From IMG/VR virus record IMGVR_UViG_2687453414_000003: 64,000 bases of DNA, one strand, 5' to 3'. Position numbers and translations under genes: made by a program. Position 1 is the first letter of the stretch. Every line of letters begins with the position of its first letter. Shown in pieces: positions 1 to 42,927 of the stretch. Under the pieces are notes generated by a model. That model was not told the origin of the DNA. It did no database searches and was given only the letters and a program-made list of their open reading frames with translations. Source of the stretch: an uncultured virus (IMG/VR IMGVR_UViG_2687453414_000003). Taxonomy: Duplodnaviria; Heunggongvirae; Uroviricota; Caudoviricetes.

Positions 1-1266
1 ATGGCTGTCAGCAGTGAAAAAAATAAGAGACGCGACAAGGGGTTGGGTGGCCTGTACGTGGATGCGAAGGGCTACCACGTCGCCTACGTCTACGTCACGG
101 ATGAGAACGGAAAACGCCGACAAATCCGGCGCGCGGCCAAGACCGAGAGACTTGCCAAGGAGAAGCTACGAGACCTACTCGTCGCCCAGACCAAGGGTGA
201 GCTGAACTCGCACAGCTCGGATCGGTACACGGTTGCTGAATGGCTACGCAAGTGGACAGATGAGATTCACAAGGATCGGGTGAAGCCTGAATCGCTGCGT
301 GACTATCGCTCCACGATTCGGAACTACATCACCCCGTACATCGGGACGCACCGGCTCGACAAGCTGACGGCAGATCACGTGCGGAAGATGGTTCGGTCCA
401 ATCAAAAGGAGCATTCACCCCGTAGCGCCCAGAAGGCATACGTCGTGTTGAATCGCGCGGTGGCCGACGCCGTGAAAGAAGAGGTCGTGCCTAAGAATGT
501 TGTGGCACTGGTGCATAAGCCGGGATATACGGCTCGGGAGCGTGGTGCATACGATCAGCTCACGGCTAAGAAGATGTTGGCGGTCGCCGCTGAGCTGGAC
601 GAGAGGCGGAGCTTTGGCCCCTATTTGGCGTCGCGTTGGGCGTTCGCGTTCCTTACCGGCGCACGGCAGGCTGAATGCCTCGGGATGGAATGGGATCGCG
701 TCTATCTGGATGAGGGCGTATTGGATGTTTCGTGGCAGTTGCAGAACCACACCAAGGTTCACGGATGCGGCGGTACCTGCGATATGGGTGGTCCTGCGTG
801 GTGCCCGCAAGCTAAGTGGGATTTTCCTGCCGGTTACGAGTATCGGGAGTGCCATCGGAGCCTTGTGTGGACGCGGCCGAAGAGCGTGACGAGTGAGCGC
901 TTTGTGCCGATGACCGAGGCTCTGGTTGAGATATTGAAGGTCTACAAGCAGGAGCAGGCGGGGCGTCACAATCCGCATAACTTGTTGTGGCATCACGACG
1001 ATGGCAGGCCCGTATCTCAGCGTGACGACAACCGGGCGTGGAATGAGCTTGTAGCGGCGTGCGGTATCACCAAGAAACGCGGCGAGGTGCTTCTACACGA
1101 GGCGCGCAACACTGCGGCTACGCAACTCATGGAAGATGGCGTAGATGCCAGGGCCATTCAGGAGTTCTTGGGTCACGCCCACATTCTGACTACCCGGCAC
1201 TACCAAAAGGTCGATATGGGGTTCCTGCGTAAGTCGGTGGCGGGGCTTGATGCCTTAGTGCCCTAA
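1..1266 (+). CDS. int: Tyrosine integrase
   Basis: Arm-binding N-terminus; TGARQAE (R), HEAR (HxxR), LGH..ILTTRHY (H, Y) catalytic motifs. Confidence 0.96.
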   Translation: MAVSSEKNKRRDKGLGGLYVDAKGYHVAYVYVTDENGKRRQIRRAAKTERLAKEKLRDLLVAQTKGELNSHSSDRYTVAEWLRKWTDEIHKDRVKPESLRDYRSTIRNYITPYIGTHRLDKLTADHVRKMVRSNQKEHSPRSAQKAYVVLNRAVADAVKEEVVPKNVVALVHKPGYTARERGAYDQLTAKKMLAVAAELDERRSFGPYLASRWAFAFLTGARQAECLGMEWDRVYLDEGVLDVSWQLQNHTKVHGCGGTCDMGGPAWCPQAKWDFPAGYEYRECHRSLVWTRPKSVTSERFVPMTEALVEILKVYKQEQAGRHNPHNLLWHHDDGRPVSQRDDNRAWNELVAACGITKKRGEVLLHEARNTAATQLMEDGVDARAIQEFLGHAHILTTRHYQKVDMGFLRKSVAGLDALVP

Positions 1267-1269
1267 GAC

Positions 1270-2040
1270 CTACACGGGCTCGGGGCGTCGGGGGGTCGGA
1301 TCGTCAGCGGGAGCCTTGTCCGTTCCTTGCTTGTTCTTTCCCAGCCATGAAAGTGCGCCGGTAACTGCGAATCCGATGGCGCAGGCGCATGTGAGCAGCC
1401 AGGCGGCTTCGCTGCCGATTGCTGGCGGTATGGAGGGGACAAATGAACTAAGCAGGCGGACAAGGCTTGCCGCGATCCCGCAAAGGCAACACATAAGGTA
1501 TGTGTCGGCTATCTGGGTTGATCGCGGGTCTTCGCGCAGGATCACGAGCATGCGGCATCCATAGCCCAGAAGGTAGATATTGATGGCGCAGACGATGAAG
1601 GAGTATGCGGACAGCCAGAAGTCGGCCGGCAGTTCAAAGAAGTCGTCCGCATACTGATTTGTGCTCTCGCTTAGGGCGAAGGTCACGAGCGTGAGCGGGA
1701 AAGCCAAAATTGCTGGTGTTTCGAGATATAGCTTGAAAGACCGTTCGAGGTAGGGGCCTTCGTCTAGGCGCTCTAGTGCGTGGTAGACGACTGCACTTAA
1801 GGCCACTATGTATGTGTTGTGCGCTAGGTAGTCCTCTAGGTTGGCCCATCCGGTTTGGTGTTGTAGCCAGATTCCGAGATGTTGGGATGCCCACGGTGAC
1901 ATGAGGATTACTGAGATGCCCTGTAGTAGCAGGCTGATGGTGGCGGCGCGTTCATAGGTGGTCTTCCATGTGGCGCGCCGTATCCACAGGCTTAGGCAGA
2001 GCGCAATTAGGGTAAGGAGTATCAACGTCGGTACTGACAT
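1270..2040 (-). CDS. Multi-pass membrane protein (about 7 TM), likely lysogen-expressed
   Basis: 256 aa with repeated hydrophobic segments; co-oriented with and downstream of the repressor. Confidence 0.75.
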   Translation of the reverse strand: MSVPTLILLTLIALCLSLWIRRATWKTTYERAATISLLLQGISVILMSPWASQHLGIWLQHQTGWANLEDYLAHNTYIVALSAVVYHALERLDEGPYLERSFKLYLETPAILAFPLTLVTFALSESTNQYADDFFELPADFWLSAYSFIVCAINIYLLGYGCRMLVILREDPRSTQIADTYLMCCLCGIAASLVRLLSSFVPSIPPAIGSEAAWLLTCACAIGFAVTGALSWLGKNKQGTDKAPADDPTPRRPEPV

Positions 2041-2145
2041 GTAAGAACGGCCCCCGTGGCTGGTCTTGTGTGCAGCGCCCCTTGTTTTTAGCTACTGCTG
2101 GGGCGCTGTGTGTGGGTTGGTTGGTTGGTTTTTGTTAGTCCCCCG

Positions 2146-2505
2146 TCACGCTGAGGGCTTTCTTTTTGCGGTGTCTAGCCGTCGTTCTCGCTTACTTGCC
2201 TTGGTGACCTCCTTTCGTCTTGTGGTCACCGTAGGGTGGCCGGATCGGTGCTCCCGCAAGAACTCTATGGCTTCGTCGTCAATGAGCCCGAAGTCGTAGT
2301 GCAGGGCGGCGGGGACTAGTTCGAAGTGCTTTGCGATAGCTGTGAGCTCTTCAAAGTTGGGGAAGTCGGCTCGGACGGCAAGCTTGCGGCTGTACGCGGC
2401 AGCGGGCAGTCCGAGGGCGGCGGTTATTTCGTTCTTCTGTACAACTCGCCCCAGGGCGTCGCTCAGGGCAACTTGTATGTCGTTACCTCGACTGTCTGTG
2501 CGCAT
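2146..2505 (-). CDS. Immunity repressor (HTH)
   Basis: HTH-like EITAALGLPAAAYSRK; divergent from cro. Start MRTDSRG at 2505 lies 6 nt after a -10 element. Confidence 0.75.
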   Translation of the reverse strand: MRTDSRGNDIQVALSDALGRVVQKNEITAALGLPAAAYSRKLAVRADFPNFEELTAIAKHFELVPAALHYDFGLIDDEAIEFLREHRSGHPTVTTRRKEVTKASKRERRLDTAKRKPSA

Positions 2506-2511
2506 GCGTGA

Positions 2512-2540
2512 ACCGTACAACCACTTTCGGTTGTGAGCAA
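2512..2540 (-). promoter_or_regulatory. SigA-like leaderless repressor promoter with a palindromic operator
   Basis: Minus strand TTGCTC-17-TACGGT-6-ATG; ACAACC-N6-GGTTGT palindrome at 2517-2534. Confidence 0.6.
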
Positions 2541-2605
2541 CTACCTTGCACCTGCGGTTATGAACTTTCCACGACAGCATGTCACAGCCATTTTTAGTTA
2601 CATGC

Positions 2606-2635
2606 TTGCAATTTTGGAAAGTGCCTTGCTACTGT
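2606..2635 (+). promoter_or_regulatory. SigA-like early lytic promoter (leaderless cro)
   Basis: TTGCAA-18-TACTGT with extended TGn, 7 nt before GTG 2643. Confidence 0.6.
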
Positions 2636-2642
2636 CGATAGC

Positions 2643-2915
2643 GTGCAACAGACCACACCAGACATCCACTGGGACTGCGAATACGTTCGAAACCTGATGG
2701 CCGTCAACAAGATTGAGACCCGCGAGGATCTTGCCCGTGAGATTTATGAAGCGCCGACGACAGTTCGCCGGTCGTTCTCAAAGAACTGGCAGGGCCGTCC
2801 GACGGTCAAGCTGATAGCGGCAATGTCCTACCGATTCAATGTCCCAATCAACAACCTGATCACCGACCCTCGACGGATGCCGCGACGCATCGCGGCTGTG
2901 AGGCGGGCCGGATGA
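2643..2915 (+). CDS. Cro-like HTH protein
   Basis: TREDLAREIYEAPTTVRR HTH; divergent from the repressor. Confidence 0.7.
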   Translation: MQQTTPDIHWDCEYVRNLMAVNKIETREDLAREIYEAPTTVRRSFSKNWQGRPTVKLIAAMSYRFNVPINNLITDPRRMPRRIAAVRRAG

Positions 2916-3127
2916 CTGCGGTAGTCGAAAGGGTCACGGCCGAGCCAGTGCTAGTGCCCAGGAGGCAGGCGGCGGAAATGCTCGGACTCGGACTCACCGA
3001 GTTTGACGAGCTGCGGCGAGCAGGACGCATCTTTGTACGCAAGTACGGACGCAAGGTGCTGGTTCCGATGGAAGAGATTAGGAAGTGCGCGGAAACGATT
3101 CCGTGGGATGAAGATAAGGATTCGTAA
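2912..3127 (+). CDS. xis: Excisionase / MerR-like HTH
   Basis: LVPRRQAAEMLGLG...GRI...KYGRKVLVP pattern. Confidence 0.75.
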   Translation: MTAVVERVTAEPVLVPRRQAAEMLGLGLTEFDELRRAGRIFVRKYGRKVLVPMEEIRKCAETIPWDEDKDS

Positions 3128-3128
3128 C

Positions 3129-3440
3129 ATGGGCTTTGCGAACATTGAAACCGAGTTGCGTTTAGCCGAGGCTCTTACCGCTATCAATGATATTCGGGAG
3201 CTTACGGGAATCGCTAACGAGCCCGTCGAACGCGGATACGTTGTTCATCGGGTCACTTCCGAACTTCAGGAATGGCTGCCGAGTGTCAAGTTTGACCAGC
3301 TTGCAGCAATCGCGGATGCCATTGTTGACAACCTAGCCGAGGTGAACCTTATCCCGGTTGGGCCGAATCTGGACGAACCTATCGGGTTCGAAATTGTTGA
3401 GAAGCTAGAGTTTTCGATTGTTCCCCTTAATGGGGGATAA
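3129..3440 (+). CDS. Hypothetical protein
   Basis: ORF starting 1 nt after the xis stop. Confidence 0.6.
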   Translation: MGFANIETELRLAEALTAINDIRELTGIANEPVERGYVVHRVTSELQEWLPSVKFDQLAAIADAIVDNLAEVNLIPVGPNLDEPIGFEIVEKLEFSIVPLNGG

Positions 3441-3702
3441 TTGAAATATGAGGATGGGGGTCAGGAGTAGGTTTGCGCGAGCGCGAAGGATCGCAAAAAT
3501 CAAAGTCTATCGCCTTGTGGCGCGTGTGAATCTACTTCTGACCGAGTGGACGTATCCGCTCTAACTTAATCCAACCAACCACATAAAAACTTTTACAGCT
3601 GGCCGTACGAAGTAACCCCGTTGTCGGGGCACCTGTGACGTTTATACCGGGTGGGTGTGCGTTTCGCCGCCAAGTTTAGGTCGCAATGAATATTGTGTGC
3701 TT

Positions 3703-3815
3703 TCACTGTTGGGCACAAACCGATGGTATGGGCGGCGTCTACACGTCTGACGCAATGCCTTGACTCGTATCCCGTGGCTGAGATACGGAGGTAGAACGGT
3801 TAGCCCTAACAGTGA
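3703..3815 (+). ncRNA. Putative structured ncRNA (three-way junction)
   Basis: TCACTGTTGGGC/GCCC(T)AACAGTGA and AACCG/CGGTT closing stem; inner GCGTC/GACGC and CTCGTATC/GATACG(G)AG stems. Confidence 0.5.
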
Positions 3816-3818
3816 GGA

Positions 3819-3920
3819 TGCGCGGGGCAGGTAATGGCTGCCGCACCCTTGCTACTTATCTATTACAAGGTAGGGACGCTGACTGGGGGGTGTTTCCGAG
3901 TTCGATTCTCGGCGCGCAGC
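3819..3920 (+). ncRNA. tRNA-like RNA with an extended arm in place of the anticodon arm
   Basis: Acceptor TGCGCG/CGCGCA; D arm GGCAG-GTAATGG-CTGCC; T arm CCGAG-TTCGATT-CTCGG; about 50-nt middle arm GCACCCTT/GGGGGTGT. Confidence 0.65.
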
Positions 3921-3921
3921 T

Positions 3922-4040
3922 AGTCGGCCGGGTTGAGCGAGCCTAATTGGAAACGGCGTTATTTGTGGTCATACGCCTGTTTGTGTTGGGGCTTAATACG
4001 GGTTTGCCTCACTCACCGGGTTTCCGCTCCCCGGCCGACT
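3922..4040 (+). ncRNA. Putative structured ncRNA with a long terminal stem
   Basis: Perfect 11-bp AGTCGGCCGGG/CCCGGCCGACT plus GAGCG/CGCTC; inner GGCGT/ACGCC hairpin. Confidence 0.5.
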
Positions 4041-4074
4041 CATTTCTCTAAATCCCTTCATCGAGAGGTGGGCA

Positions 4075-4383
4075 ATGGCTATCAATCTTGGGAAACCTAC
4101 GGGTCCAAAGTTACGTGAACTGCCGCGAGCAGATAGAAACCGCATCCGCATTCTTCTGAATGCTTGGCTGGATTGCGCTATTCGTTATCCACCTCACAAG
4201 CGTGAGCCGCTGCCGGTTGATTACACCCGTGCGCTGGCGTCTTTGGCGAAACAGCGGGGTATTCAAGTGGTCTTTGATGGCCGCGATGGTTCTAAGCCTC
4301 TACAGGTGACCTTGGATCGCACCATTCCGGGGTGCGTGGGCGGCACTCACCGAAAGGTCGCAGTGCGCAAGCCGTGGAAATGA
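4075..4383 (+). CDS. Hypothetical protein
   Basis: GAGGTG RBS; 102 aa. Confidence 0.6.
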   Translation: MAINLGKPTGPKLRELPRADRNRIRILLNAWLDCAIRYPPHKREPLPVDYTRALASLAKQRGIQVVFDGRDGSKPLQVTLDRTIPGCVGGTHRKVAVRKPWK

Positions 4384-4693
4384 GTTTAACCATTTAGGAA
4401 AGGTAGTAAAGGAATGTTCGAATGCCCGCTGGGGTGTGGTCATGCGTACCGCGAAGAATACCAGCTTCATTTACATGAATGGGCTTCTGAGGCGGGGCGT
4501 CTGCCGGATTGCGGCAAGGGTATGGGTGGCCCGCCCTCGCACTCTCAGTTCGAGGTGTCCGAGTCGTGATCAGGTGTCGGTTGGGCATCCATAAGTGGAC
4601 GCTATGGGGGAAACCTAACAACGCATTTAGCCTATCGCTAAGGCAGAAACGCGAGTGCATTCGGTGCCGGATAGTGAAGACGAGGTTGGCCAT

Positions 4694-5467
4694 ATGGTGA
4701 TAGAGCCGAATAAGGTAATGGTTGCGGGGGATTGGCACGGTAACCCGTACTGGGCTGAACAGGCCATTAAGTACGCCAAGCGTAACGGCGTAGACACGAT
4801 AGTTCATGTTGGCGATTACGGGTTTTGGACGCCATCGGAGCGGACCTATGCCTACCTGCTCGGGTCTAACCAACTGCTTGAAGAGCTAGGCATGTGGCTG
4901 GTCTGGGTGGATGGCAACCATGAGGATCATTCGCAGCTTGACGAATGCAACGTACCTGGCGGTAAGCCAACGGTATTCGGTGATCTAGACCGGATCATGC
5001 ATCTGCCTCGCGGTTTCCGCTGGGAGTGGTGGGGTATGACGTGGATGGCGTTAGGTGGCGCACATTCGGTGGACCGCTCGTGGCGGCGCGAGGGTCACGA
5101 CTGGTGGCCTGGTGAGGCGCTTAGCGGTGAGCAGGTCGAATACGCTTCACGGCCTGGCGGCGTGGATGTGATCGTTGCCCATGATGCGCCTCGCGGGTTC
5201 GCGATTCCAGGTATCGGTTCGGGTAACGAGTTCCCTAGCGAAGACCTGTTAGCAGCCGAGTCTCATCGGGGCCTGGTCCGTGAAGTGGTTGATGCGACTA
5301 AGCCGAGCCTGTTCTTTCACGGGCACTATCACGTCAACTACCGGGCCAAGCTTGAGCGCGAGGGCGGCACTACCGAGGTTTTCGGTTTGGACCGCGACAA
5401 CTCCACGATTGCGCGAAACACCATGTTCCTTACCCGCGAGGATCTGGAGAAGGTGATCAATCCGTGA
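4694..5467 (+). CDS. Calcineurin-like metallophosphoesterase
   Basis: GDWHG, GDYG, GNHE, HD and GHYH motifs. Confidence 0.92.
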   Translation: MVIEPNKVMVAGDWHGNPYWAEQAIKYAKRNGVDTIVHVGDYGFWTPSERTYAYLLGSNQLLEELGMWLVWVDGNHEDHSQLDECNVPGGKPTVFGDLDRIMHLPRGFRWEWWGMTWMALGGAHSVDRSWRREGHDWWPGEALSGEQVEYASRPGGVDVIVAHDAPRGFAIPGIGSGNEFPSEDLLAAESHRGLVREVVDATKPSLFFHGHYHVNYRAKLEREGGTTEVFGLDRDNSTIARNTMFLTREDLEKVINP

Positions 5468-5667
5468 GGGTCCAAGAGAAGGCTGTACTCAACTTCCTTA
5501 CTGACTATGTGGGCGAACACGGGTACGCGCCGAGCTATCGGGAGATATGCGAAGGAACTGGGATTAGGTCTTCGTCTTCTATTCAGCCCGTACTGGACTC
5601 GTTGCAGGATGAAGGATTCATCCGTCATCGTGCCCGCGCATCTCGCGCTATCGCGCTGTTGCGATAG
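5464..5667 (+). CDS. Stand-alone LexA-type DNA-binding domain protein
   Basis: GYAPSYREICEGTGIRSSSS...LQDEGFI...SRAI; no peptidase domain. Confidence 0.8.
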   Translation: MRVQEKAVLNFLTDYVGEHGYAPSYREICEGTGIRSSSSIQPVLDSLQDEGFIRHRARASRAIALLR

Positions 5668-5672
5668 GAGAT

Positions 5673-5933
5673 GTGATGAGAATCCTTGTGCTCATGGTCA
5701 TCTTGGCTCTGCTCGCGCTCGTTGGCTACGCGATATACGCCACCGTCCGATGGCGCGAACGAGGACGGCTCATCGAGGGGCTAAACGATCCCGTTAAGTG
5801 GCTCTCCCGCAAGGAACGCCGAGAGCATGCCCGAACGCTCCTAGCTCGCGAGCAAGACGAGTACGACCAAAAACGGCAACAACAAATCGAATCAACAATC
5901 AACCAATTTTTAGAGAGGCAATCCAAAGTATGA
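5673..5933 (+). CDS. Small membrane-anchored protein
   Basis: N-terminal TM helix; AGGAG RBS. Confidence 0.65.
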   Translation: MMRILVLMVILALLALVGYAIYATVRWRERGRLIEGLNDPVKWLSRKERREHARTLLAREQDEYDQKRQQQIESTINQFLERQSKV

Positions 5934-6832
5934 AACGCACTAAGGCAGCTGTAGTCGGTATCGCCGTGGCCGCTGGCCTCACGCTTTCCGCCTGCGCTAC
6001 CCAGATTCCCGCCGGCCAAACGGCAGTTAAGGTCGATGACTACGCGTTTGTTCCTACCGCCCCCAAGATCATCGGTTGTATGGGGCCGGAAACCTCGGAG
6101 GCCAACCCGCCTGGCGGTTTCAAGATCTACCGTTATCCGGCGCGCCAGATCAGTTGGGACGCAACGGGCGCGAAGGGCGCAGAACACCAGCCGTACGTTG
6201 TGGTATCGGGCGCGGAGGCACCGGCTGAGCTTAAGGTGCCGGTTGTTGTGACCATGGACCTGACCTCGGATTGCGAGAAGCTATCTCAGTTCCACCGGGA
6301 CTTCGGTACTAAGTATCAGGGTTGGCTGAATGAGGACGGCACTCAGTCGGATGGTTGGGTGCAGTTGGTGAATTACGTTGTGGGCCAACCACTTGAGCAG
6401 ACGCTTACGCAGGTGGCGCAGAAGTACACTTGGCGTCAGATCTGGAATGACGAAAAGGTGCGTGTGGAATTCCAGAACGTGCTTAAAGAACGGCTTCCGG
6501 GCGCGTCCAAGGCGCGCACTGATGGGCAGGAGTATTTCACCAACTTTCAGATAACGGTGCTTAAGCCTGAGCCGATGGACGGAAACCTCAAGGCTGCAAT
6601 CAATAAGGAGCAGTCCAGCGTCGCGGAGGCGAACGCTAAAAAGGCTGCCGCCGACGCGGAGGTTAAGGCTGCGGAGTCGCAGACTGAGGTGGCTAAGCAG
6701 CAGGCGTTGCAGAAGCAAGCCGAGATTGCGGGCTTCCCAACCATTGAGGCCTACTTGCAGTCCCAGTTGATTGCGCAGGGCGGTAACCCCTATCAGCCCA
6801 CTTACGTTGTCCCGCAGGGCGGTAATCGGTAA
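5930..6832 (+). CDS. SPFH/band-7-like lipoprotein
   Basis: Lipobox LSAC; band-7-like core; Ala/Glu/Lys coiled coil. Confidence 0.65.
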   Translation: MKRTKAAVVGIAVAAGLTLSACATQIPAGQTAVKVDDYAFVPTAPKIIGCMGPETSEANPPGGFKIYRYPARQISWDATGAKGAEHQPYVVVSGAEAPAELKVPVVVTMDLTSDCEKLSQFHRDFGTKYQGWLNEDGTQSDGWVQLVNYVVGQPLEQTLTQVAQKYTWRQIWNDEKVRVEFQNVLKERLPGASKARTDGQEYFTNFQITVLKPEPMDGNLKAAINKEQSSVAEANAKKAAADAEVKAAESQTEVAKQQALQKQAEIAGFPTIEAYLQSQLIAQGGNPYQPTYVVPQGGNR

Positions 6833-7042
6833 GTGAGGCGTTCGAAGACGCTGGTGGCCGGTGGCGTTATCGCTGCCGGTCTCACCGGCCTACTTGTCGG
6901 GTGTGATGTCAGCGACCAGCGCACGAACACATCCGACCCTGATCTAACAGTTGCGCATATCAACGTGGATAACGTTCCGCGTACATGCGTTGTCTACCGG
7001 GACTACCGAAAAGGTGGGTTGTCCTGCAATTGGAGTGACTAA
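6833..7042 (+). CDS. Small lipoprotein
   Basis: Signal peptide with LVGC; GGLSCNW C-terminus. Confidence 0.6.
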   Translation: MRRSKTLVAGGVIAAGLTGLLVGCDVSDQRTNTSDPDLTVAHINVDNVPRTCVVYRDYRKGGLSCNWSD

Positions 7043-7045
7043 CCT

Positions 7046-7390
7046 ATGAGTAAAAAGCTAACTAAGACACAAGGATTGGTGCAGACGGTACCTATGCCCA
7101 AAGACGTTGCATGGGCTACCAAGGTCACCGGCAGAAACCTTGGGGCAGTGACCTACATGCTGTCTTTGTCGTGCGAGAAGAAGTCCAAGCTTGGGCAGCT
7201 CACGGTGACGTTCAAAGAGGACGGCTCACTACGGCGAATCCGGTTCCGGGGCACGGGCGTTGTCGTCTATCCCGGCACCTATCTGGTGTACGTGCCGTCA
7301 ACCGGAAACGTTCATGTCGTACCGGCTAAGGACTACAAAGAGAACTTCGGGGAGGTAATAGATCGTGACCACGTTTTTGCAGGAGATTAG
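7046..7390 (+). CDS. Hypothetical protein
   Basis: ORF in operon. Confidence 0.55.
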   Translation: MSKKLTKTQGLVQTVPMPKDVAWATKVTGRNLGAVTYMLSLSCEKKSKLGQLTVTFKEDGSLRRIRFRGTGVVVYPGTYLVYVPSTGNVHVVPAKDYKENFGEVIDRDHVFAGD

Positions 7391-8798
7391 CCGCGAGACC
7401 AACCTGACCCGCACTGAGAATGGCGCGGTTACGAATGCGTCGAGTCTCAACGCGGTGGTTGATTTCTTCGCGGCTGCCGGGGCGATGCGGGACACCCCCG
7501 ACAAGGCTGCCGATCTTTTCGAGAAGGCGTATCGGGAAGACCCGCAGACTGCTATCCGCACCATGTTCTACCTGCGCGATGTGCGCGGAGGGCAGGGGGA
7601 GCGCGATGTCTTCCGGTCCTGCCTTAAGCGCCTGGCCGATCTGGGCTTTACTCCAATGGACAAGGTGCTTAAGCACATTCCGGAGTATGGCCGCTGGGAC
7701 GACCTGTTTTATCAGGGTTCGACGGTGACAGGTGGCATGGCCAAGATCATTGGCGACCAGCTCGTGAAGGACGCCGACGCGTACAACCGTGGCGAGTCAG
7801 TATCACTGCTGGCCAAGTGGCTGCCGTCCGATACGTCCAAGGGACGCAAGGATCTTGCGGTAAACCTGCGTAAGGCTATCGGCTTGGATCAGCGCAAGTA
7901 CCGCAAGGTGCTGTCTCGGCTGCGGGCTCACATCGGCCTGCTTGAGCAGGATATGTCCGCTAAGCGGTGGCGGGAGATTGACTGGGGCAAGTTGCCTTCG
8001 CGCGCTCACATGACGCACGTTAAGGCGTTCCATCGCCACACGCCCGCCGAGTATCAGGCTTACCTCGATTCGGTTGTTAAGGGCGAGGCCAAGGTAAACG
8101 CGGCGACCCTGTATCCGTATGAGCTGTACGACATGGTGAATGCCGGTCAGTCGCAGGCTGCGGATGCGTTGTGGGCAAACCTGCCTGACTACACGCGCGG
8201 CAACGATGGGATCGTTCTAGCGGACGTGTCGGGATCGATGAGTGGTCGGCCTATGTCGGTTTCGGTATCGCTGGCGTTGTATTTCGCGGACCGCAATCAG
8301 GGCGTTTACAAAGATCACTTCATGACCTTCTCGTCCACCCCCAAGATTGAGAAGGTCGAGGGCAAGACCCTGGCGGATCGAATGCGCGCGATTGAGAATT
8401 CGACCGGCTGGTATGGCTCAACAGACCTGCACGCGGCGTTCCGGGCCATCTTGGCAGCGGGGCAGCGCTCAGGCCAGGTGCCCAAGACTCTCTACGTGGT
8501 GTCGGATATGGAGTTCAACGCGGCGTTCGGGTTCTACCGCAACGACCGCACCGTTGACACCATCTTTGAGACGGCCAAGCGGGAGTTCGCAGCTGCGGGG
8601 CTCGTACTGCCTCACGTCGTGTTCTGGAACGTCAACGCCCGGAACAGTAACTACCCGGCACTAGCCCACGACGGCAATGTGACGCTGGTTTCTGGACTGT
8701 CGCCCACGGTGTTCGGAATGGCGGTAGAGGGTAAGTCTCCCGCTGAATTGGTGCGAGATGTCGTGAATGGACCGCGTTATCAGCCCATCGTAATTTGA
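7365..8798 (+). CDS. DUF2828-family protein with C-terminal VWA domain (Ro60/TROVE-like architecture)
   Basis: TENGA, RDVRGGQGER, YGRWDDL, AKWLPS, KLPS, TLYPYEL motifs; MIDAS DVSGS; SDMEF; VFWNV; LVSGLSP. Confidence 0.88.
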   Translation: MTTFLQEISRETNLTRTENGAVTNASSLNAVVDFFAAAGAMRDTPDKAADLFEKAYREDPQTAIRTMFYLRDVRGGQGERDVFRSCLKRLADLGFTPMDKVLKHIPEYGRWDDLFYQGSTVTGGMAKIIGDQLVKDADAYNRGESVSLLAKWLPSDTSKGRKDLAVNLRKAIGLDQRKYRKVLSRLRAHIGLLEQDMSAKRWREIDWGKLPSRAHMTHVKAFHRHTPAEYQAYLDSVVKGEAKVNAATLYPYELYDMVNAGQSQAADALWANLPDYTRGNDGIVLADVSGSMSGRPMSVSVSLALYFADRNQGVYKDHFMTFSSTPKIEKVEGKTLADRMRAIENSTGWYGSTDLHAAFRAILAAGQRSGQVPKTLYVVSDMEFNAAFGFYRNDRTVDTIFETAKREFAAAGLVLPHVVFWNVNARNSNYPALAHDGNVTLVSGLSPTVFGMAVEGKSPAELVRDVVNGPRYQPIVI

Positions 8799-8840
8799 TG
8801 GGTTGGTAGTGTTCCCCTAGTTGGGGTATGGTGAATTTAG

Positions 8841-9035
8841 TGGGCGCGAACAGCAATCACACTCAACTTTCATTTTCGAAAAAATAGAGAGCGCCCAGTT
8901 TCTGAACTTTGTGGACCCATACAGCAATATTTTACCTTGCATATAGGAAAGAAATCGGGTCCAGTCTTGCGGTCGAGGACACAAGCAGCAATCTAAAATC
9001 AACTGTTAAGTGGTAACTGTTTCAAACGGTGTCCT
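8841..9035 (+). ncRNA. Array of three CAGCAAT stem-loop units (8841-8897, 8912-8963, 8976-9035)
   Basis: Each unit is G-[7-bp stem]-NARCAGCAAT-AT-rich 28-36 nt-[complement]-GT; stems differ in sequence but pair perfectly. Confidence 0.75.
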
Positions 9036-9094
9036 GTCAAACCGCGAAAACTCACTGTTTTCATGCTCGTGAGTCCTAACAATATTTTCGGGTT

Positions 9095-9132
9095 AACCCG
9101 GCCAGCCTAGGGGGGTGCTGGCCGGGTTTTCT
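9095..9132 (+). terminator. Intrinsic terminator after the ncRNA array
   Basis: AACCCGGCCAGC/GCTGGCCGGGTT 12-bp stem followed by TTCT. Confidence 0.8.
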
Positions 9133-9161
9133 CGTATCTGCACACCATTTTAGGAGTACAC

Positions 9162-9512
9162 ATGTGGCGCATAGCTGCAATCACTGCCATCTGCGCAGCA
9201 TTGGGCATCTCTGCCTCTGCCTGCGCGACGAGCAATCAGGAATGGCACCGAGACTGCACGGTGCTGTCTAAAGACACCCTCTACGACACGTCGGGGTCCA
9301 ATGGCCACACCAGGACGACTCGTAAGAATCGGCTATCGACTAGTTGCGGTGCGTTCTCTGTTGACGACGCTTGGGAAGTAGGTTCATTCAATTCATGGGA
9401 TCTGTGGGCGCGACTTGAACAAGGCAAGGTCTATGACCTTAAGACCGGCGGATACCGCAATGGCTTCATGGGCATGTTTCCCGTGGTGCTCGAAATTAAG
9501 GGGCCTAAGTGA
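9162..9512 (+). CDS. Secreted/lipoprotein hypothetical
   Basis: AGGAG RBS; signal peptide ending ASAC. Confidence 0.7.
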   Translation: MWRIAAITAICAALGISASACATSNQEWHRDCTVLSKDTLYDTSGSNGHTRTTRKNRLSTSCGAFSVDDAWEVGSFNSWDLWARLEQGKVYDLKTGGYRNGFMGMFPVVLEIKGPK

Positions 9513-9694
9513 ACGGCACAATTCGCGTGTTCGACTACCAGGGAAATTCGGAAGCTTATTCCGCTGAATCGGCGCGGGTAGAGGCCGGTGTTTTGTATGT
9601 GGAAAACGGTCAGACGGTGACGATTGTGAATGCTGATGCGTGGTCTAAGGCAGTCGCAACTGGGGTAAATGATTTTAGAGGGGGTTACGTTTGA
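9509..9694 (+). CDS. Hypothetical protein
   Basis: GTGA-coupled ORF. Confidence 0.55.
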   Translation: MNGTIRVFDYQGNSEAYSAESARVEAGVLYVENGQTVTIVNADAWSKAVATGVNDFRGGYV

Positions 9695-9718
9695 TTATTA
9701 GGTTGACTGTGGGGGATT

Positions 9719-10558
9719 TTGACTGACCACAGCATTGTTAGGGACCGCTGGGGTAGGCCGTATATCACGCAGAATGGGGAGCCGCTGCGCTACAAGCCGG
9801 GCGGTAAGACCCCGATTAACGCGGAGGGCTATACGCGCATCTCGACGTTGGCCGGCACTCTTGACGACAAGGGCAATCTGTCTGACTGGCTAGCTGCTAG
9901 AGCGCTTATGGGCGTGGTGAAGTCAGAAGCTCTGTTCGCGCAGGCCGCACACCTGGTCTCCGCGCACAAAGATCCCTGGGCAGTACCCGAGGGCAAGAAG
10001 CCGCTAAAAGAGTTAGTAGCGAGTGCGCAGGCATTGGGCGGTTCGGAAGATGCGAGCGGGTTAGGTACGGCGTTCCATGGCCTCTGTGAGGTTCTAGACG
10101 AAGGCAACAAGCCGCAGTATGTGCCACGACAGCTTGAGCCTTGGATTGAAGCCCGCCAGGCGGCTATTGAAGAGTTCGACCCGGTTCTTATTGAGCCGTT
10201 CGTGGTTAATGACGAGTTGAAGAGTGCCGGTAACCCGGACCGATACTTGTTGCATAGGCCAACGGGCATTGTGTACGCAGCTGACGATAAGACGGGTTCT
10301 AGTGAGCCTGATTTTCCGCTCAAGGTCACGATTCAGGTTGCGATTGCGTCGCGGAGCGTCCTATATGACCAGAAGACCGGTAAGCGCACTCCTATTAAAT
10401 GTGATCAAAGCAAGGGCTTGCTGGTGCATACGCCTATTCGGGATGTGCGGCCCCGCTCCAATCTGTATTGGCTTGATCTAAATAAGGGCTGGGAGTACGC
10501 CAAGTTGGCGGTACAGGTGCGTGAGGCTCGGAAGCTGCCGAAGCTGACAAGGAAATAG
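9719..10558 (+). CDS. PD-(D/E)XK / Cas4-like recombination exonuclease
   Basis: RDRWGRP N-terminus, GTAFH, E..V, GNPDR, DDKTG, Q motifs; near the ERF gene. Confidence 0.8.
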   Translation: MTDHSIVRDRWGRPYITQNGEPLRYKPGGKTPINAEGYTRISTLAGTLDDKGNLSDWLAARALMGVVKSEALFAQAAHLVSAHKDPWAVPEGKKPLKELVASAQALGGSEDASGLGTAFHGLCEVLDEGNKPQYVPRQLEPWIEARQAAIEEFDPVLIEPFVVNDELKSAGNPDRYLLHRPTGIVYAADDKTGSSEPDFPLKVTIQVAIASRSVLYDQKTGKRTPIKCDQSKGLLVHTPIRDVRPRSNLYWLDLNKGWEYAKLAVQVREARKLPKLTRK

Positions 10559-10647
10559 ATGCGCAATGGGTCTACTTGGAGAAATAGTTTTGGCCGCATT
10601 CCTTATGGGTGTGGTCGTGGCGTATTGGATTATGGCGGAGTGAACTG

Positions 10648-10998
10648 ATGTCTCTAATTGGGGAGAACCTAATTCGTTTGGTACGAGAAAAGGCGGCGTC
10701 TTACCCCGAGTTCGTCTATGACAACAACGGTGTGGCTTGCAGATATGTAGTGGAAGGTAAACCAAGCTGCCTTATCGGACACGCCTTGTGGGGGGCCGAT
10801 CTGATCGGGCCATCATTCGAACACAATCAACGCAATCAGGTTGCGTTTGGGCATCTCGTGACGCCCCTTGGGCTTGCACTTGATTGGCGGGAAATAGCTT
10901 GGTTGAGGCGGGTGCAATTCCTTCAAGACTCCGGCCACGCGTGGGGTGTAGCCGTAGGCGACGCCGATAGAACGTGCGCACTTAGCGCCACAGGATAG
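10648..10998 (+). CDS. Hypothetical protein
   Basis: CRY...PSCLIG...QDSG..WG pattern typical of actinophage ORFs. Confidence 0.6.
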   Translation: MSLIGENLIRLVREKAASYPEFVYDNNGVACRYVVEGKPSCLIGHALWGADLIGPSFEHNQRNQVAFGHLVTPLGLALDWREIAWLRRVQFLQDSGHAWGVAVGDADRTCALSATG

Positions 10999-11005
10999 GA
11001 AGATT

Positions 11006-11767
11006 TTGACAGACGATGAAGTGAAAGAAGATGTTACTTACGAGGCGATCATCTCGCGTCTCGATGAGCTTGAAAACAAGCTGAAAGACCCGGCCTATTA
11101 CGACCCGACCCCGACCGTCTTTGAGGCGTGGGGCCGGGTTATGGATGAGGTTAGGTCCATCGGCAAGGAGTCGCGGAACGCGCAGCAGGGCTTCAACTTC
11201 CGTGGCATCGATGCAGTAATGGACGCGGTTGGCCCGGTGCTCCGAAAGCACGGCGTAACGGTGGTCCCTATCGCTATCGAGCACGAAGCGGAACGGTACG
11301 AGACCGCCAAGGGCGGCAAGATGGTTAACCGCATCGCTAAGGTGCAGTTCACCGTATTCGGGCCACGAGGCGATCATTTCGGCGGTGTCACGTACGGCGA
11401 GGCTGCCGATTCCGGCGATAAGGCGATGACTAAGGCCGAATCAGTGGCGCTGCGGACATTCCTGTTGCAGGCGTTGATGATTCCGACTGGTGATCCCGAT
11501 CCTGATGCGGAGTCGCATGAGCGGGCCACGTCTGCACGTCCTGCTGCTAAGGCTGCCGCACCTGCCAAGGCTAAGGCACCGTCTGCTGCCGATAAGGCAC
11601 GAGACGACTTGAGGGCCGTTGCAGCCGAGAATGAGTGGGATCTAGAACGGGTTGCGGCAACGTTCACTAAGAACAATGCGGGCAAGTCGTTGAAGACTGC
11701 TACCGCTGATGTGGTTAAGGCGTTCACGGCTGCTCTTGTGGGTGGGGTGGTGACACTTGATGAATAG
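11006..11767 (+). CDS. ERF-family single-strand annealing protein
   Basis: FNFRGIDAV, GEAADSGDKAMTKA, IPTGDPDPD. Confidence 0.9.
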   Translation: MTDDEVKEDVTYEAIISRLDELENKLKDPAYYDPTPTVFEAWGRVMDEVRSIGKESRNAQQGFNFRGIDAVMDAVGPVLRKHGVTVVPIAIEHEAERYETAKGGKMVNRIAKVQFTVFGPRGDHFGGVTYGEAADSGDKAMTKAESVALRTFLLQALMIPTGDPDPDAESHERATSARPAAKAAAPAKAKAPSAADKARDDLRAVAAENEWDLERVAATFTKNNAGKSLKTATADVVKAFTAALVGGVVTLDE

Positions 11768-11929
11768 CAACTGGTGGAAACCTTCGCTCGGACCTGACTG
11801 CGATTACAAGTGTGGCCGCAAGGCCACGCACGCAGTCGGGTTCGTGGACCACCTGCTTCTGTGTGCGAGCTGCCTTAGTTGGGGTCAGATTCGGCGCTGG
11901 TGGCATAAAGAGCCTGTGCAGGTGATCTA

Positions 11930-12277
11930 GTGGCGGAACCGACTAATCCGGTTGAGATTGAGTCGCGTATCCGTGATGTGGTGGCCTTTATTTCCAAGGG
12001 CACCAGGGTGGTTCGGCAAGCTCGTGACGAGTATTTGGCCGCTAAGCGCGCCTATCAGCTCGGGTTGGCGGCGTCGCGCCAATCAGAGCAGGGCACACGC
12101 GCGGACCGCGAAGACAAGGCGCTTCTCGCTAACGCCGAGCTATGGGAATCCATGGATACCGCCGAGGTCACCATGAAATACGCGCAGGACAAGAAATCAG
12201 ACCTGGAGTCTGAGCTGTCCGGTTTGCAAACGTCAGCGCGCCTAATTGCGCAGGAATACAACGTTTCTGGCCGCTGA
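11930..12277 (+). CDS. Hypothetical coiled-coil protein
   Basis: ORF in operon. Confidence 0.6.
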   Translation: MAEPTNPVEIESRIRDVVAFISKGTRVVRQARDEYLAAKRAYQLGLAASRQSEQGTRADREDKALLANAELWESMDTAEVTMKYAQDKKSDLESELSGLQTSARLIAQEYNVSGR

Positions 12278-35806: not shown

Positions 35807-35879
35807 TCCTTCGTAGCTCAATTGGTAGAGCTGCGCCCTGTTAAGGCGTCGGTTGTTGGTTCGAATCCAGCCGGAGGAG
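35807..35879 (+). tRNA. tRNA-Asn(GTT)
   Basis: TCCTTCG/CGGAGGA; GCGCC-CTGTTAA-GGCGT. Confidence 0.93.
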
Positions 35880-35881
35880 CA

Positions 35882-36229
35882 TCACAGGTGCACATCTGGC
35901 GGCTTAGTTGCCTGGAATGTCGCCGGCGGAAGCCATAGCCTCATTGTGATTTCCGACCAGCCGTTTCCGCTGGTAGTGGGTACTTCAACGATTCCGAGCC
36001 AGTGGTTTGACGTGGTTCGTATCCAGGCTAACTGAGTGCCCTTCATCCAGCGGTTAACGATTAGGCCATGGGTTTTGATGTCACGGTGGATGCCGTTCTT
36101 CGTGCCGTCTACGCATCCTGGTAGCGCTAGGAGCATGTTGACGTAGACGGTCCTGAACTGTCGGGTGAGTGTGGGGTGGCTGGGCAAGCTGTTCCAGTGT
36201 TCGAAAGCCCGGAAGAGTGGATCGAACAT
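35882..36229 (-). CDS. Hypothetical protein, putatively SOS-regulated
   Basis: 115 aa; SOS-box-like site overlaps the start codon. Confidence 0.65.
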   Translation of the reverse strand: MFDPLFRAFEHWNSLPSHPTLTRQFRTVYVNMLLALPGCVDGTKNGIHRDIKTHGLIVNRWMKGTQLAWIRTTSNHWLGIVEVPTTSGNGWSEITMRLWLPPATFQATKPPDVHL

Positions 36230-36237
36230 GTGTGCGA
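36222..36237. promoter_or_regulatory. Mycobacterial LexA (SOS) box
   Basis: TCGAAC-ATGT-GTGCGA; one mismatch to TCGAAC-N4-GTTCGA. Confidence 0.6.
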
Positions 36238-36276
36238 TGATGGCTCATGCGGGCTTGGGCTGCAAGATGCATGGTG

Positions 36277-38068: not shown

Positions 38069-38113
38069 GCGGTTACGGTACCTGGCTAGCGCGCTAAGCA
38101 TGATCGCCCTCGC

Positions 38114-38680
38114 TTAGGTGTTGTCTTTTAGTGCGCGGTCGTAGATGTCCTTCGGCACGCACTCCCACGGCACGGCGTCTAGCTCGCGCTTGTACTGGTC
38201 ACGCTCGGCTTTAACGGTCTCTAGCTCGGCCTCGGCCTGCGTGCGCAACGCGTGTGGTGTCTGACCCTCCGACTTTGCGACATAGAACACGTAGCGGTGG
38301 CGAGTTTCTGGGTCACGCACCGTGGTTTCGATGTAGTTCTTAGCGTCGGGCTCTTGGGTAAACCAGATCTTCGCCATGCCTACGAGGATGTCGGTCAGGT
38401 ATTCGGGTATACCAAAACCTGCACCGTTAGGGCCTAATTCGGTCACGAGCGCGTCAACTTCGGCGCGTAGGTGCTGCTTAACCTCGGCGTACTTCTTAGC
38501 CTTCTTGGGGGACTTGTGGCGCTGTTCGTCGGGGATTTCCAGCACTAGTCGGCGCTCGCTGCGCCAGTCAGTGCCGTCATCCTTGATCATTGTGCCGGGC
38601 CATGTCTTGCCGATGATGTTGATTAGGGTGCCGGTTATGTCGATTGGTAGGGGTAGTTCAATCCTTATCTGGGTAGGCAT
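38114..38680 (-). CDS. Hypothetical protein
   Basis: 188-aa ORF in the leftward operon. Confidence 0.6.
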   Translation of the reverse strand: MPTQIRIELPLPIDITGTLINIIGKTWPGTMIKDDGTDWRSERRLVLEIPDEQRHKSPKKAKKYAEVKQHLRAEVDALVTELGPNGAGFGIPEYLTDILVGMAKIWFTQEPDAKNYIETTVRDPETRHRYVFYVAKSEGQTPHALRTQAEAELETVKAERDQYKRELDAVPWECVPKDIYDRALKDNT

Positions 38681-39178
38681 GGTTTAAGCCAAATCTTCCG
38701 GGTCGTATTCGTACCAGTTGCCATCCTCGTCTAGGTACGTCACCCCGCCCGCGTTGGCGTAGTCAGGAATCATATTGTTTTCGAACTGGAATAAGGCAAC
38801 GGAGTAGATGGCGTCCAGAATGGCCTGTCCGGTGGCCGGGTCTGGCACTGATTGTTCCCATGCCTTGCCGGGGACTTGGTGGGTGTACCAGACGCGAAAT
38901 TCTGTAGGTGTCTGCACGTTTGTTCCTTTCGGGTTGTGTCTGCCATAACCGGCCACGGGTGTTAAACCGTGACCGATTAAAGCGGACCAGCACCAACCAA
39001 ACCGCTTAGTCTTTTACCAGGCGATGAGTACGCCGAAAATACGGAGCGCACGCACAGTCTGAGTACTGCCCCTCTTGTTATCCATGTCGTCTTGGTAGTC
39101 GATGGATTGACGGAAGACGTTAAACGTCGTCTTGCGATAAGTAATGTGCTTGGTTGTGATCTTCATTTCAACCTTTCA

Positions 39179-39213
39179 TTTCGTCCAGCTTGGCGATTAA
39201 AAGCTGTGCAGAG
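39179..39213. repeat. 35-bp direct repeat, copy 2
   Basis: Identical to 36277-36311. Confidence 0.9.
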
Positions 39214-39756
39214 TAGACGGGGTAGGGGTAAGCGAACGGGTTAGGCCGGTGGCCGGCTAGGTGCTTAGCGCTTTGCGCGCTTCTGCGAGCCATCTGTCCC
39301 AGTGCCATGACGGAAGGCCGATAACATTGTCTTCCGGGTCCAAGATGAGGCGCGCGGCCTTGCGGATTGACTGGACTTCAACCCACATCGCTAGATCTGT
39401 GAATTTCATGCGCTCCATGTCACATGCTGTGGCCGGTTCCGGGACATTCAGGTATGCGGCCCGGTATTCGGCGTAGGAGTTGAGTAGTGCGGCTAGCTTC
39501 TGTACGTCAGCCATTGGCCTTGCTCCTTAGTTGTGTGTGGTTCATCGGCCTAGCGCCAACCACAAGCCGAGACCCATGCCTAGTAGAAACATGATTTGGG
39601 AATACAACCAAAACGAAAAGAAGTCCTTCATTTGCCTTGCTTCCGTACATATTTGGCTGCGGCTAGCAGTGCGGCCGCAATGGTCTCGGCATCATCGGGG
39701 TTGTCGATCACGCTCGGTATGAGGGCTTCTGGAATTTCCTTACTGGTCATGGACGG

Positions 39757-40593
39757 TTAGTCCTTAATCAAGTTCAATTTGCGCAGAGTGTCGATGACAG
39801 AGAACGTATCGTCATCGTCCTTAAGCGGAGGAATGATGGTTGAGCCCTCGGGGTAATCTGGCTCCCACCTATAAGTGTGGCCAGCATGATTGCCGTAGAA
39901 ACTTCCCACGCCCACAGCGTCATGCCAATCACTCGGTAGAGAATGATCGGCATTCCAACCTAGAACCCGGTTGTATGCGGCGTGGGTAAACGCGAACATG
40001 ACGCTACCGCTATCGTAAAAGTCACCGGGTGCCTTAATACGCACAGAGGTTCGGGCTGTTTTAGGCCCGCTCGTCGCATTGATAGACCTGTCAGCCCAAA
40101 TCTCAGTGGTTGCGCCCGTGGCCTCGATTGCCTCAATAAGCGCGACTACCTTCTGGCCGCGTAACTTGATTGCCTTTTGGCTGACCATCCAGGGGACGGC
40201 AGTCCCGATAACAAGTGACACAACCCGTTCTGGACGCTGCATGTCTTCCACGCGGTAGTCAATCATGCATTCAGGCTCACCAGCGAGATATAACGCTACG
40301 TCAACATCCGTGCCCGATACGTGCCATTCACTGCTGAAAGCCTGATAGTTGAGCTGACCTTCCAAATCTTTAAGTTGACCGGCGGCGATAGACAGGGCCT
40401 CGATACCCTCACGCTGCAAACCCTCGCGCGCCATATCTAAGGCGTGGTCAAGGTCTCTGGCTCCGCCGAAAAAATCCCGCTCGCGGTTAGACATTCGTGT
40501 ACTGCGGTAGTCCTTTTTAGCGTTGTGTTCTATAAATTCCTGTAGAGAGTTAAACACTAAGCGTGCGTGGTTGCCGTCAATTTCGGTACGCAT
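39757..40593 (-). CDS. Putative VWA-like partner of the AAA ATPase
   Basis: DVDVALYLAGEPECM motif; alpha/beta C-terminal region; adjacent to a MoxR-like ATPase. Confidence 0.6.
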   Translation of the reverse strand: MRTEIDGNHARLVFNSLQEFIEHNAKKDYRSTRMSNRERDFFGGARDLDHALDMAREGLQREGIEALSIAAGQLKDLEGQLNYQAFSSEWHVSGTDVDVALYLAGEPECMIDYRVEDMQRPERVVSLVIGTAVPWMVSQKAIKLRGQKVVALIEAIEATGATTEIWADRSINATSGPKTARTSVRIKAPGDFYDSGSVMFAFTHAAYNRVLGWNADHSLPSDWHDAVGVGSFYGNHAGHTYRWEPDYPEGSTIIPPLKDDDDTFSVIDTLRKLNLIKD

Positions 40594-40667
40594 TGGGTGG
40601 TCCTTAGGATTGTGGTTGGATTTTGGCAAGGGGCACCCAATAGGGTTATCGGATGCCCCGCGACTAG

Positions 40668-41858: not shown

Positions 41859-41913
41859 AAGCTGGTCGCCTTTACTTGGGTTGAAAAGTGGTTGGTTGGT
41901 TGGTGTGGTTAAG

Positions 41914-41942: not shown

Positions 41943-41946
41943 GTAC

Positions 41947-42880: not shown

Positions 42881-42927
42881 AGTGCTGGTCTCCCGTGGTC
42901 AATGGGTAAGTGGTTGGTATGCGCATG

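Follow-up and report, generated by a model that had tools for sequence, protein, structure and literature searches.

A four-module RNA cassette in the early region

The window analyzed in the present study, a stretch of 64,000 nucleotides from an uncultured virus (IMG/VR record IMGVR_UViG_2687453414_000003), belongs to a temperate phage or prophage of mycobacteria of the Lclasvirinae (cluster L) type. At positions 3597-4040 on the + strand, its early region contains a cassette of four structured modules, herein designated E0, E1, the tRNA mimic and E3. An initial annotation of this DNA had proposed three nearly abutting non-coding RNAs (ncRNAs), the middle one mimicking a tRNA, in a 630-bp gap without a credible open reading frame (ORF). 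These three folds were recovered at approximately the positions proposed, but the upstream module E0 (3597-3690) had been overlooked, so that the modules number four, and the gap holds a conserved ORF at 3448-3564, which leaves approximately 3565-4074 as its non-coding part. The elements of the cassette are as follows:

3597..3690, + strand: E0, a four-way junction of an outer stem and three hairpins (Alifold; 12-sequence covariation)
3685..3702, + strand: spacer between E0 and E1, AAUGAAUAUUGUGUGCUU in the window clade and R-UGA-R-UA in relatives (invariant in three alignments)
3703..3815, + strand: E1, a long closing stem around two hairpins (fold and covariation)
3817..3921, + strand: tRNA mimic (tRNA-like structure, TLS) (fold; acceptor and T-stem covariation; ARAGORN intron mode)
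3922..4040, + strand: E3, with an 11-bp closing stem, a UU bulge, a second stem GAGCG/CGCUC and a branched top (fold and covariation)
4041..4056, + strand: pyrimidine-rich tail after E3, CAUUUCUCU in the window and AUUCUCUU in smegmatis phages (conserved; function unassigned)

Relatives of the cassette were drawn from IMG/VR (using an exact 20-mer and a degenerate E0 pattern), an annotated phage collection, and genome and metagenome contigs. The window clade comprises five sequences in three lineages, namely the window with L009, L024, and the Aegeus-type sequences L001 and L002. Its pair structure was derived from the minimum free energy (MFE) fold of the window itself, and thus the proportion of paired cells is flattered by this procedure, whereas the counts of pairs altered on both sides are not. 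As a control, pairing partners were displaced by one to three columns (slid control). Compared with shuffles, low folding energies were obtained for E1 (3703-3815; MFE -45.5, z -3.6), the tRNA-like fold (3819-3920; MFE -42.0, z -2.25) and E3 (3922-4040; MFE -53.3, z -3.8). Over the whole cassette, 93.6% of 672 pair cells in the five sequences were standard, compared with 41-45% in the slid controls, and 19 of the 137 pairs were altered on both sides, compared with 0-2 after sliding; the covariation among relatives on which the initial annotation had made its proposal depend is therefore present. Within the window clade, both-sides changes were observed at 5 of 12 closing-stem pairs and 3 of 13 inner-hairpin pairs in E1, and at 6 pairs in the E3 helices. 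Across all 12 lineages, E1 folds as a closed stem, and the long closing helix of E3 begins 0-5 nt 3' of the mimic. The best conserved module is E0, in which 97.6% of cells are paired over 12 sequences (slid controls 31-51%), 7 of 21 pairs are altered on both sides, and the covariation score was reached by none of 500 shuffles; it carries an invariant UACGAA-N-UA linker and a CYCCG-UUGY-CGGRG hairpin. E0 occurs as a single copy, and a search within the window revealed no second copy of either E0 or the cassette. The folds of E1, the mimic and E3 lie 0-3 nt apart in the window, and no long-range pairing between modules was found, all helices being local. Every module is a separately closed fold kept by compensatory evolution, and because G-U pairs are frequent in both E0 and the cassette, the RNA strand is the + strand.

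The structured, + strand RNAs are also non-coding, as had been proposed. Four of the five + strand ORFs of at least 31 aa over the cassette acquire stops or frameshifts in L024 or in the Aegeus-type sequences, and the fifth, 3947-4051, the equivalent of the Aegeus gp51 'membrane protein', loses its frame and regains it in L024. In the Aegeus record (L001:3202-3630), four tiny coding sequences, gp48-gp51, including the 34-aa 'membrane protein', are drawn over the cassette; judging from the relatives, in which the cassette ORFs are broken or frame-shifted, these are most likely over-annotation. No annotated feature lies under the cassette in 56 of the 60 cluster L records among the matches listed.

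The tRNA-like middle element

The middle element has the outline of a tRNA. Its acceptor stem (3818-3824/3913-3919), in which the first pair is an A.G mismatch in the window clade, runs directly into the 5-bp T stem of a T arm reading CCGAG-UUCGAUU-CUCGG, with a G-C pair closing the loop. A D hairpin with GG in its loop is present in 13 of 13 folded sequences. The shape elements of a tRNA, namely an acceptor adjoining a 5-bp T stem, a canonical T loop and a GG-containing D hairpin, occur together, and the place of the anticodon arm is occupied by a variable structured arm of 61-77 nt. The stems were counted with a script anchored on the T loop, because the cross-clade MAFFT alignment of the mimic was not in register. 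In 14 sequences, 93 of 98 acceptor cells are paired, with both-sides changes at 5 of 7 positions, and 68 of 70 T-stem cells are paired, with such changes at 3 of 5 positions; a one-position shift left 7 of 84 and 36 of 56 cells paired, respectively. The T loop is UUCGAUU in 11 sequences, UUCAAUU in 1 and UGCAAUC in 2. In the mimics of smegmatis phages, all 7 acceptor pairs are formed (GCGAUAC/GUAUCGC and variants) and the discriminator is A, and in 3 of the 14 mimics ACCA is encoded right after the acceptor, with E3 beginning immediately thereafter.

Searches for ordinary tRNAs gave a different picture from this outline. The tRNA family RF00005 had no match in 3400-4120, either at gathering score or at E<=10, and ARAGORN with default settings reported no tRNA in the 22 cassette sequences. 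With introns allowed, ARAGORN found 9 or 15 of the 22 at exactly the mimic coordinates (in the window 3817-3921, as 'tRNA-Ser'), with anticodons varying by lineage (act, att, gat, ggc, caa and gct). The middle element is thus a tRNA mimic and not a tRNA, because it has no conserved anticodon arm or anticodon and is detected neither by default ARAGORN nor by the tRNA covariance model (CM); together with the covariation of the acceptor and T stem, this agrees with the initial annotation. Descent of the mimic from one of the 17 tRNAs of the window was considered and gained no evidence, the best case matching at 25 of 53 end positions. Two families that had been suggested as leads, YrlA and tmRNA, did not lead further: YrlA (RF02553) had no match at E<=10 in 3400-4120 or 1-12000, ARAGORN -m reported tmRNA in 0 of 22 sequences, no Rfam tmRNA match was obtained, and the long arm contains no conserved reading frame. 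An Rfam scan of the whole window at gathering score and scans at E<=10 of 3400-4120, 1-12000 and 8700-9500 returned nothing in the cassette; matches to mir-315, U8, Ms_IGR-8, sR44, Chlorobi-1 and Dicty class I were at chance level and were discarded. Scans at E<=1 of the loci of five relatives likewise returned nothing inside their cassettes. The cassette is therefore a set of four RNA folds without an Rfam family, although tRNA-mimic ncRNAs and tRNA-like punctuation are already known in kind. No paper describing it was found in a literature search that did not cover bioRxiv supplements or file 6 of PMC4201824. In the accessible part of its report, the LeBron overexpression screen left out RNA genes and names only the Ro-like protein, RNA ligase and kinase.

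Distribution, neighboring genes and the Ro-like protein

The order E0-E1-mimic-E3 is unchanged in distant relatives, including GuuelaD, Appletree2, Bromden, Lumos, several IMG/VR contigs and a Mycolicibacterium sphagni prophage. The cassettes of relatives always precede the same 102-aa-type gene and metallophosphoesterase. By blastn with the GuuelaD cassette, 93 phage records, all from Mycobacterium phages, match at least part of it, and 45 of these cover at least 80% of the query. E1 occurs in different forms, namely a small hairpin (GuuelaD, Bromden and Lumos), a large three-way form (the window, Appletree2 and L025) and another hairpin (L027). Lumos and L025 are 93% alike otherwise, yet their E1 differs; the apical part of E1 is exchangeable between lineages in small or large versions. 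E0 was also found alone, in L030:1590-1760, L055:640-815 and L054 (minus strand, approximately 1480-1680, two tandem copies), in each of these small integrase-bearing elements between an integrase-side region and an excisionase-type helix-turn-helix (HTH) gene, and 5' of a hairpin or terminator. The swapping of E1 between close phages and the solitary occurrence of E0 argue for separable units. The strict E0 pattern had no match in genome contigs; a relaxed pattern gave 27 loci, of which only L044, L054 and L055 were real E0 by nhmmer, and the remaining loci match the pattern alone, in about the number expected by chance. In L055, the scan called a terminator-like hairpin with a T-run 3' of E0, approximately 35 nt before the gene start, and the excisionase-type HTH gene is followed by a 361-aa gene. 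The L030, L054 and L055 elements may represent satellites, or integrative elements of another kind, with an RNA signal in common with L-type phages.

The features surrounding the cassette are given below:

1-1266: integrase, at the left end of the window
2146-2580, leftward: repressor-side gene
2643-2915: cro-like gene, toward the left end of the window
2912-3127: HTH_17 excisionase, toward the left end of the window
3448..3564, + strand: small conserved ORF of 38 aa (from the ORF list), not part of the RNA cassette
4075..4383, + strand: 102-aa gene, phrog_5916, function unassigned; the first gene 3' of the cassette, syntenic in all relatives
4655-5467: metallophosphoesterase, following the 102-aa gene
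7365..8798, + strand: Ro-like RNA-binding protein (DUF2828 and DUF7788/vWA, phrog_850), 3.3 kb downstream of the cassette
approximately 8840-8899, 8911-8965 and 8976-9040: three tandem Y-RNA-like hairpins, directly 3' of the Ro-like gene

The placement of the cassette just after cro and xis in the initial annotation holds for its early position and not for direct adjacency, as xis and the cassette are separated by two small ORFs. One of the ORFs in this region, 3448-3564, probably starts at Met3, giving 36 aa, of which 22 (61%) are identical in Aegeus gp47; a comparison with Crossroads gp44 gave no match. Its product is basic and falls into neither a Pfam nor a PHROG family. Among annotated phages, Aegeus and Baudelaire (host M. 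chelonae) come closest, with 72.9% identity over 97% of window 3400-4120 and approximately 75% over the early region. The 17 ordinary tRNA genes lie at 30-36 kb of the window, far from the cassette. A promoter and terminator scan of 2500-4500 called no + strand site in the gap; the spacer at 3685-3702 contains a -10-like hexamer, TATTGT, noted by eye and not called by the promoter scan, and -10-like hexamers upstream of E0, also noted by eye, are not conserved. Farther downstream, between the cro-to-Ro-like block and the next early genes, a GC-rich hairpin at 9093-9135 (CCGGCCAGCC ... GCUGGCCGG) with a 9-nt loop and a U-rich tail resembles, by eye, an intrinsic terminator situated within the early operon; the terminator scan left it uncalled.

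In 24 of 26 related loci, the distance from E0 to the Ro-like gene downstream is 3.5-5.1 kb. This co-occurrence is not independent evidence, because it reflects synteny among relatives. According to Chen et al. (2014, PMC4201824), YrlA-type RNAs are found within 4 kb of Ro genes on the same strand; the phages in Table S2 of that paper are cluster C phages, Bacillus phage G and CcrColossus, and cluster L is absent from that table. The Ro-like gene of the window is trailed by an array of its own, a stronger Y-RNA candidate than the cassette, whose units consist of a 5' stem strand GUGG/GAGG-NNNN, an invariant A-C/G-AGCAA and a 3' strand ending in CCAGU or CCUGU, with stems that covary between units and between phages. 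The middle unit measures 131-134 nt in smegmatis cluster L phages, where it contains a permuted tRNA mimic; against RF02553, the units of Appletree2 and Lumos score 39.8 and 39.3 bits (E approximately 3e-5), below the gathering score of 69, and the known YrlA of Bxz1, used as a control, scores 32.5 bits against the same threshold, indicating that the model is weak on phage YrlA. All three downstream units of the window are short, and none has a tRNA-like domain. Judged from these features, the downstream hairpins probably serve the DUF2828 Ro-like protein as its Y RNAs, and because the Ro-like gene has this array behind it, the cassette RNAs are probably not its main partners. In the Crossroads study, a parent phage is given with the deletion 38089-43093, corresponding to genes 49-58 (PMC6426596, Table 1); since the deletion removes the Ro-like gene 55, this gene is dispensable for plaque growth.

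DUF2828 genes seem to adjoin tRNA or ncRNA regions in unrelated phages as well. In Listeria phage P100, a ROOL-like RNA (L037:1968-2519; RF03087, 86 bits, E 2e-16, below the gathering score of 99.1) and flanking tRNAs lie on the same strand as the Ro-like homologue gp165; the P100 record puts those tRNAs on the strand opposite to the cmscan matches. PMC12282133 mentions 'three highly transcribed regions' preceding an Rsr-like gene in the P100-like phage CKA15, and the ROOL-like RNA and tRNAs of P100 may explain them. In Salmonella phage FO1a (L038:4877-8060), a Felix O1-type Ro-like homologue is followed immediately by the tRNA cluster of the phage, with at least nine tRNA matches that are unannotated in the record.

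Proposed processing, alternatives and known systems

Herein, we propose that 3597-4040 is a four-module ncRNA cassette (E0, E1, an anticodon-less tRNA mimic and E3) within the + strand early rightward operon, and that it is cut apart at the mimic; we assign this reading a probability of roughly 0.5. Expression from the early region, as anticipated by the initial annotation, is consistent with results for a relative. The Crossroads cassette (35824-36239), identical to that of GuuelaD, lies between genes 45 and 46, and transcriptome sequencing of Crossroads describes early rightward transcription of genes 41-48 (PMC6426596), which places this cassette within an early transcript at the level of genes rather than of per-base depth. 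With regard to cleavage, the mimic would retain the parts read by tRNA-processing enzymes, namely an acceptor stacked on the T arm and a D/T elbow, and because of these parts host enzymes would be expected to act on it. RNase P would cut at the 5' side, and RNase Z, or trimming combined with the CCA-adding enzyme, would act at the 3' side. E1 would thus be released with a 3' overhang of 1-3 nt and E3 with a defined 5' end, and a stable tRNA-shaped RNA would be left after cleavage. As a best guess, the released RNAs would be RNA-protein scaffolds or decoys tied to the RNA-metabolism genes of the phage. Release of the neighbors by RNase P and 3' processing is plausible by analogy with the YrlA of M. 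smegmatis, for which PMC4201824 describes a tRNA-like domain with a 7-bp acceptor that in vivo is cleaved by RNase P and acquires CCA, and a single precursor that yields both YrlA and YrlB.

Several observations weigh against this proposal. In the same source, Chen et al. describe that Y RNAs without a 7-bp acceptor were not cleaved by RNase P (PMC4201824), and the acceptor of the window mimic consists of 6 standard pairs plus A.G (as in 4 of the 14 sequences), which weakens the RNase P case for the window copy. In addition, position 8 of the mimic is G and not U, the Aegeus mimic carries an extra G at the T arm, and the inner hairpin within the long arm is weakly conserved, with 62% of cells paired. 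The independent lineages behind the covariation are few (3 in the window clade and approximately 9 overall). An index of sequencing runs listed no RNA run containing 3580-4060, and four RNA runs with the same species labels yielded no reads on 3400-4150, which carries no weight either way, the organism or prophage not being evident in these runs. It is equally conceivable that the three adjacent closing stems stack on one another to form a single large RNA.

This last point leads to the alternative that the approximately 450 nt form one unprocessed, multi-domain 'ornate' RNA, in which the tRNA-like domain is architectural or recruits an enzyme. Coaxial stacking is possible because the closing stems abut at 0-4 nt, the module order is fixed in all full cassettes, the ROOL-like RNA and tRNAs of P100 lie directly upstream of a homologous Ro-like gene, and, according to PMC5737381, ROOL and GOLLD are frequently located close to tRNAs and within prophages. 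Nevertheless, we consider a single large RNA unlikely, as ROOL and GOLLD have no match in the window at gathering score or in the region at E<=10, pairing between modules was not found, and both the swapping of E1 and the solitary E0 speak for separable units. To a similarly limited extent, we allow that the cassette, or at least E0, might be a cis-acting leader of the early operon, of the nut/put-like antitermination (compare lambda nut and HK022 put) or attenuator type, instead of a source of trans-acting RNAs. A regulatory role of E0 is hinted at because E0 alone precedes excisionase-type genes in small integrative elements: it stands next to such an HTH gene in three elements that are not L-type, in tandem in L054, and in L055 it comes before the called terminator-like hairpin; in the window, the hairpin at 9093-9135 interrupts the early operon after the Ro-like gene. 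However, the terminator scan called neither the L030 hairpin nor 9093-9135, no terminator follows E0 in L-type phages, and a leader gives no reason for a tRNA mimic and two further closed domains.

Rather doubtful is a role of E0 and/or E1, and perhaps the mimic, as Y-RNA-type partners of the Ro-like protein, tethering it to host enzymes or gating its cavity. In 24 of 26 loci, the cassette lies on the same strand as the Ro-like gene and within approximately 4 kb of it, a placement of the kind used by Chen et al. to recognize such RNAs; YrlA is characterized above all by tRNA mimicry; and a CGAA linker directly follows the 5' strand of the end-to-end stem of E0. The motif GNCGAA(N0-1)G occurs exactly, as GNCGAA(N)G, only in the E0 of L054 and L055 (GACGAAG), and the E1 of Bromden and Lumos contains GACGAA followed by CCG. 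In contrast, the strict motif is missing from E0 and E1 of the window, whose E0 has G-UA-CGAA-G with one extra base, and the other L-type E0 have UACGAA. Furthermore, candidate Y RNAs of its own lie behind the Ro-like gene, the middle one matching YrlA at 39-40 bits in smegmatis phages, whereas the cassette has no YrlA match at E<=10; the mimic runs in the normal order (5' acceptor strand, D arm, long arm, T arm, 3' acceptor strand, with open ends) and not in the permuted order of YrlA; L030 has E0 without a Ro-like gene in the 7.6 kb examined; and the co-occurrence of E0 with this gene is synteny among relatives. Finally, it is highly improbable that the cassette encodes small proteins such as Aegeus gp48-gp51 or that its middle element is a real, intron-containing tRNA. 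The four small coding sequences of the Aegeus record, the ORF 3947-4051, intact in the window and in Aegeus-type sequences, and the 'tRNA-Ser' of ARAGORN intron mode would point in this direction; the loss of frame in relatives, including that of the fifth ORF in L024, the 56 of 60 records without annotation, substitutions in the cassette that track base-pairing, lineage-dependent anticodons, the 0 of 22 default ARAGORN detections and the lack of a tRNA CM match at E<=10 argue against it.

Based on the proposal of a cassette cut at the mimic, a broader and quite speculative hypothesis, which we ourselves regard as unlikely, may be put forward. The cassette RNAs, cut at the mimic by host enzymes, would form an RNA-handling system together with the Ro-like protein, the Y-RNA array, the metallophosphoesterase, the RNA ligase and the kinase, acting as decoys or scaffolds for the protection or repair of RNAs attacked by tRNA-targeting defenses of the host, and E0 would be a nut-like signal shared with integrative elements. 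If this is true, E0-bearing integrative elements could be switched on by a factor of an infecting phage. A cassette of approximately 450 nt, at least part of which occurs in approximately 93 cluster L records and in M. chelonae-group prophages, is mostly unannotated or covered by tiny hypothetical proteins. The punctuation of transcripts by tRNA shapes is known from organelles and one herpesvirus, and the present cassette would provide a case from a bacterial virus in which a tRNA shape may punctuate structured RNAs. Together with the downstream Y-RNA-like array, it offers a model, tractable in M. smegmatis, for Ro-type proteins of phages and for tRNA mimics in infection, and the same model could reveal whether E0 links phages with small integrative elements via a common RNA signal.

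The cassette can be compared with several known systems. The mimic and the canonical tRNAs of the window share an acceptor abutting a 5-bp T stem, a UUCGAUU loop with G53-C61 and a GG-containing D hairpin. Unlike these tRNAs, the mimic has no 5-bp/7-nt anticodon arm or conserved anticodon, has G at position 8, is missed by default ARAGORN and the tRNA CM, and shares at most 25 of 53 end positions with them. Like YrlA and YrlB, the cassette includes an ncRNA with tRNA-like acceptor, D and T elements on the same strand near a Ro-type gene; YrlA and YrlB are described as several RNAs from one precursor, with an RNase P cut and CCA gain in M. smegmatis. In YrlA the order is permuted to V, T arm, closed acceptor hairpin and D arm, and the ends form the Ro-binding stem, whereas the mimic has the normal topology with open acceptor ends, and the associated protein of the cassette phage is a DUF2828/vWA protein and not an annotated TROVE Ro60. 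Like ROOL and GOLLD, the cassette is a large, gene-free structured RNA region in a phage with a tRNA association; unlike them, it shows no CM match and no long-range helices or pseudoknots were detected in it, and its modules are exchanged or found alone.

In plant mitochondrial t-elements, MALAT1 mascRNA, the TMERs of MHV68 and mitochondrial tRNA punctuation, RNase P and RNase Z cut at the borders of a tRNA-shaped element, which sets the ends of the adjacent RNAs. T-elements, mascRNA and TMERs are eukaryotic, organellar or animal-virus systems, whereas the cassette belongs to a bacteriophage early operon. In further contrast to those systems, the mimic has a structured arm of 40-65 nt replacing the anticodon arm and large closed domains on both sides. 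The cassette resembles t-elements, mascRNA and TMERs in that a non-decoding tRNA shape is embedded in a longer transcript, and, as the neighbors of TMERs are folded hairpin RNAs, the neighbors of the cassette mimic are also folded RNAs.

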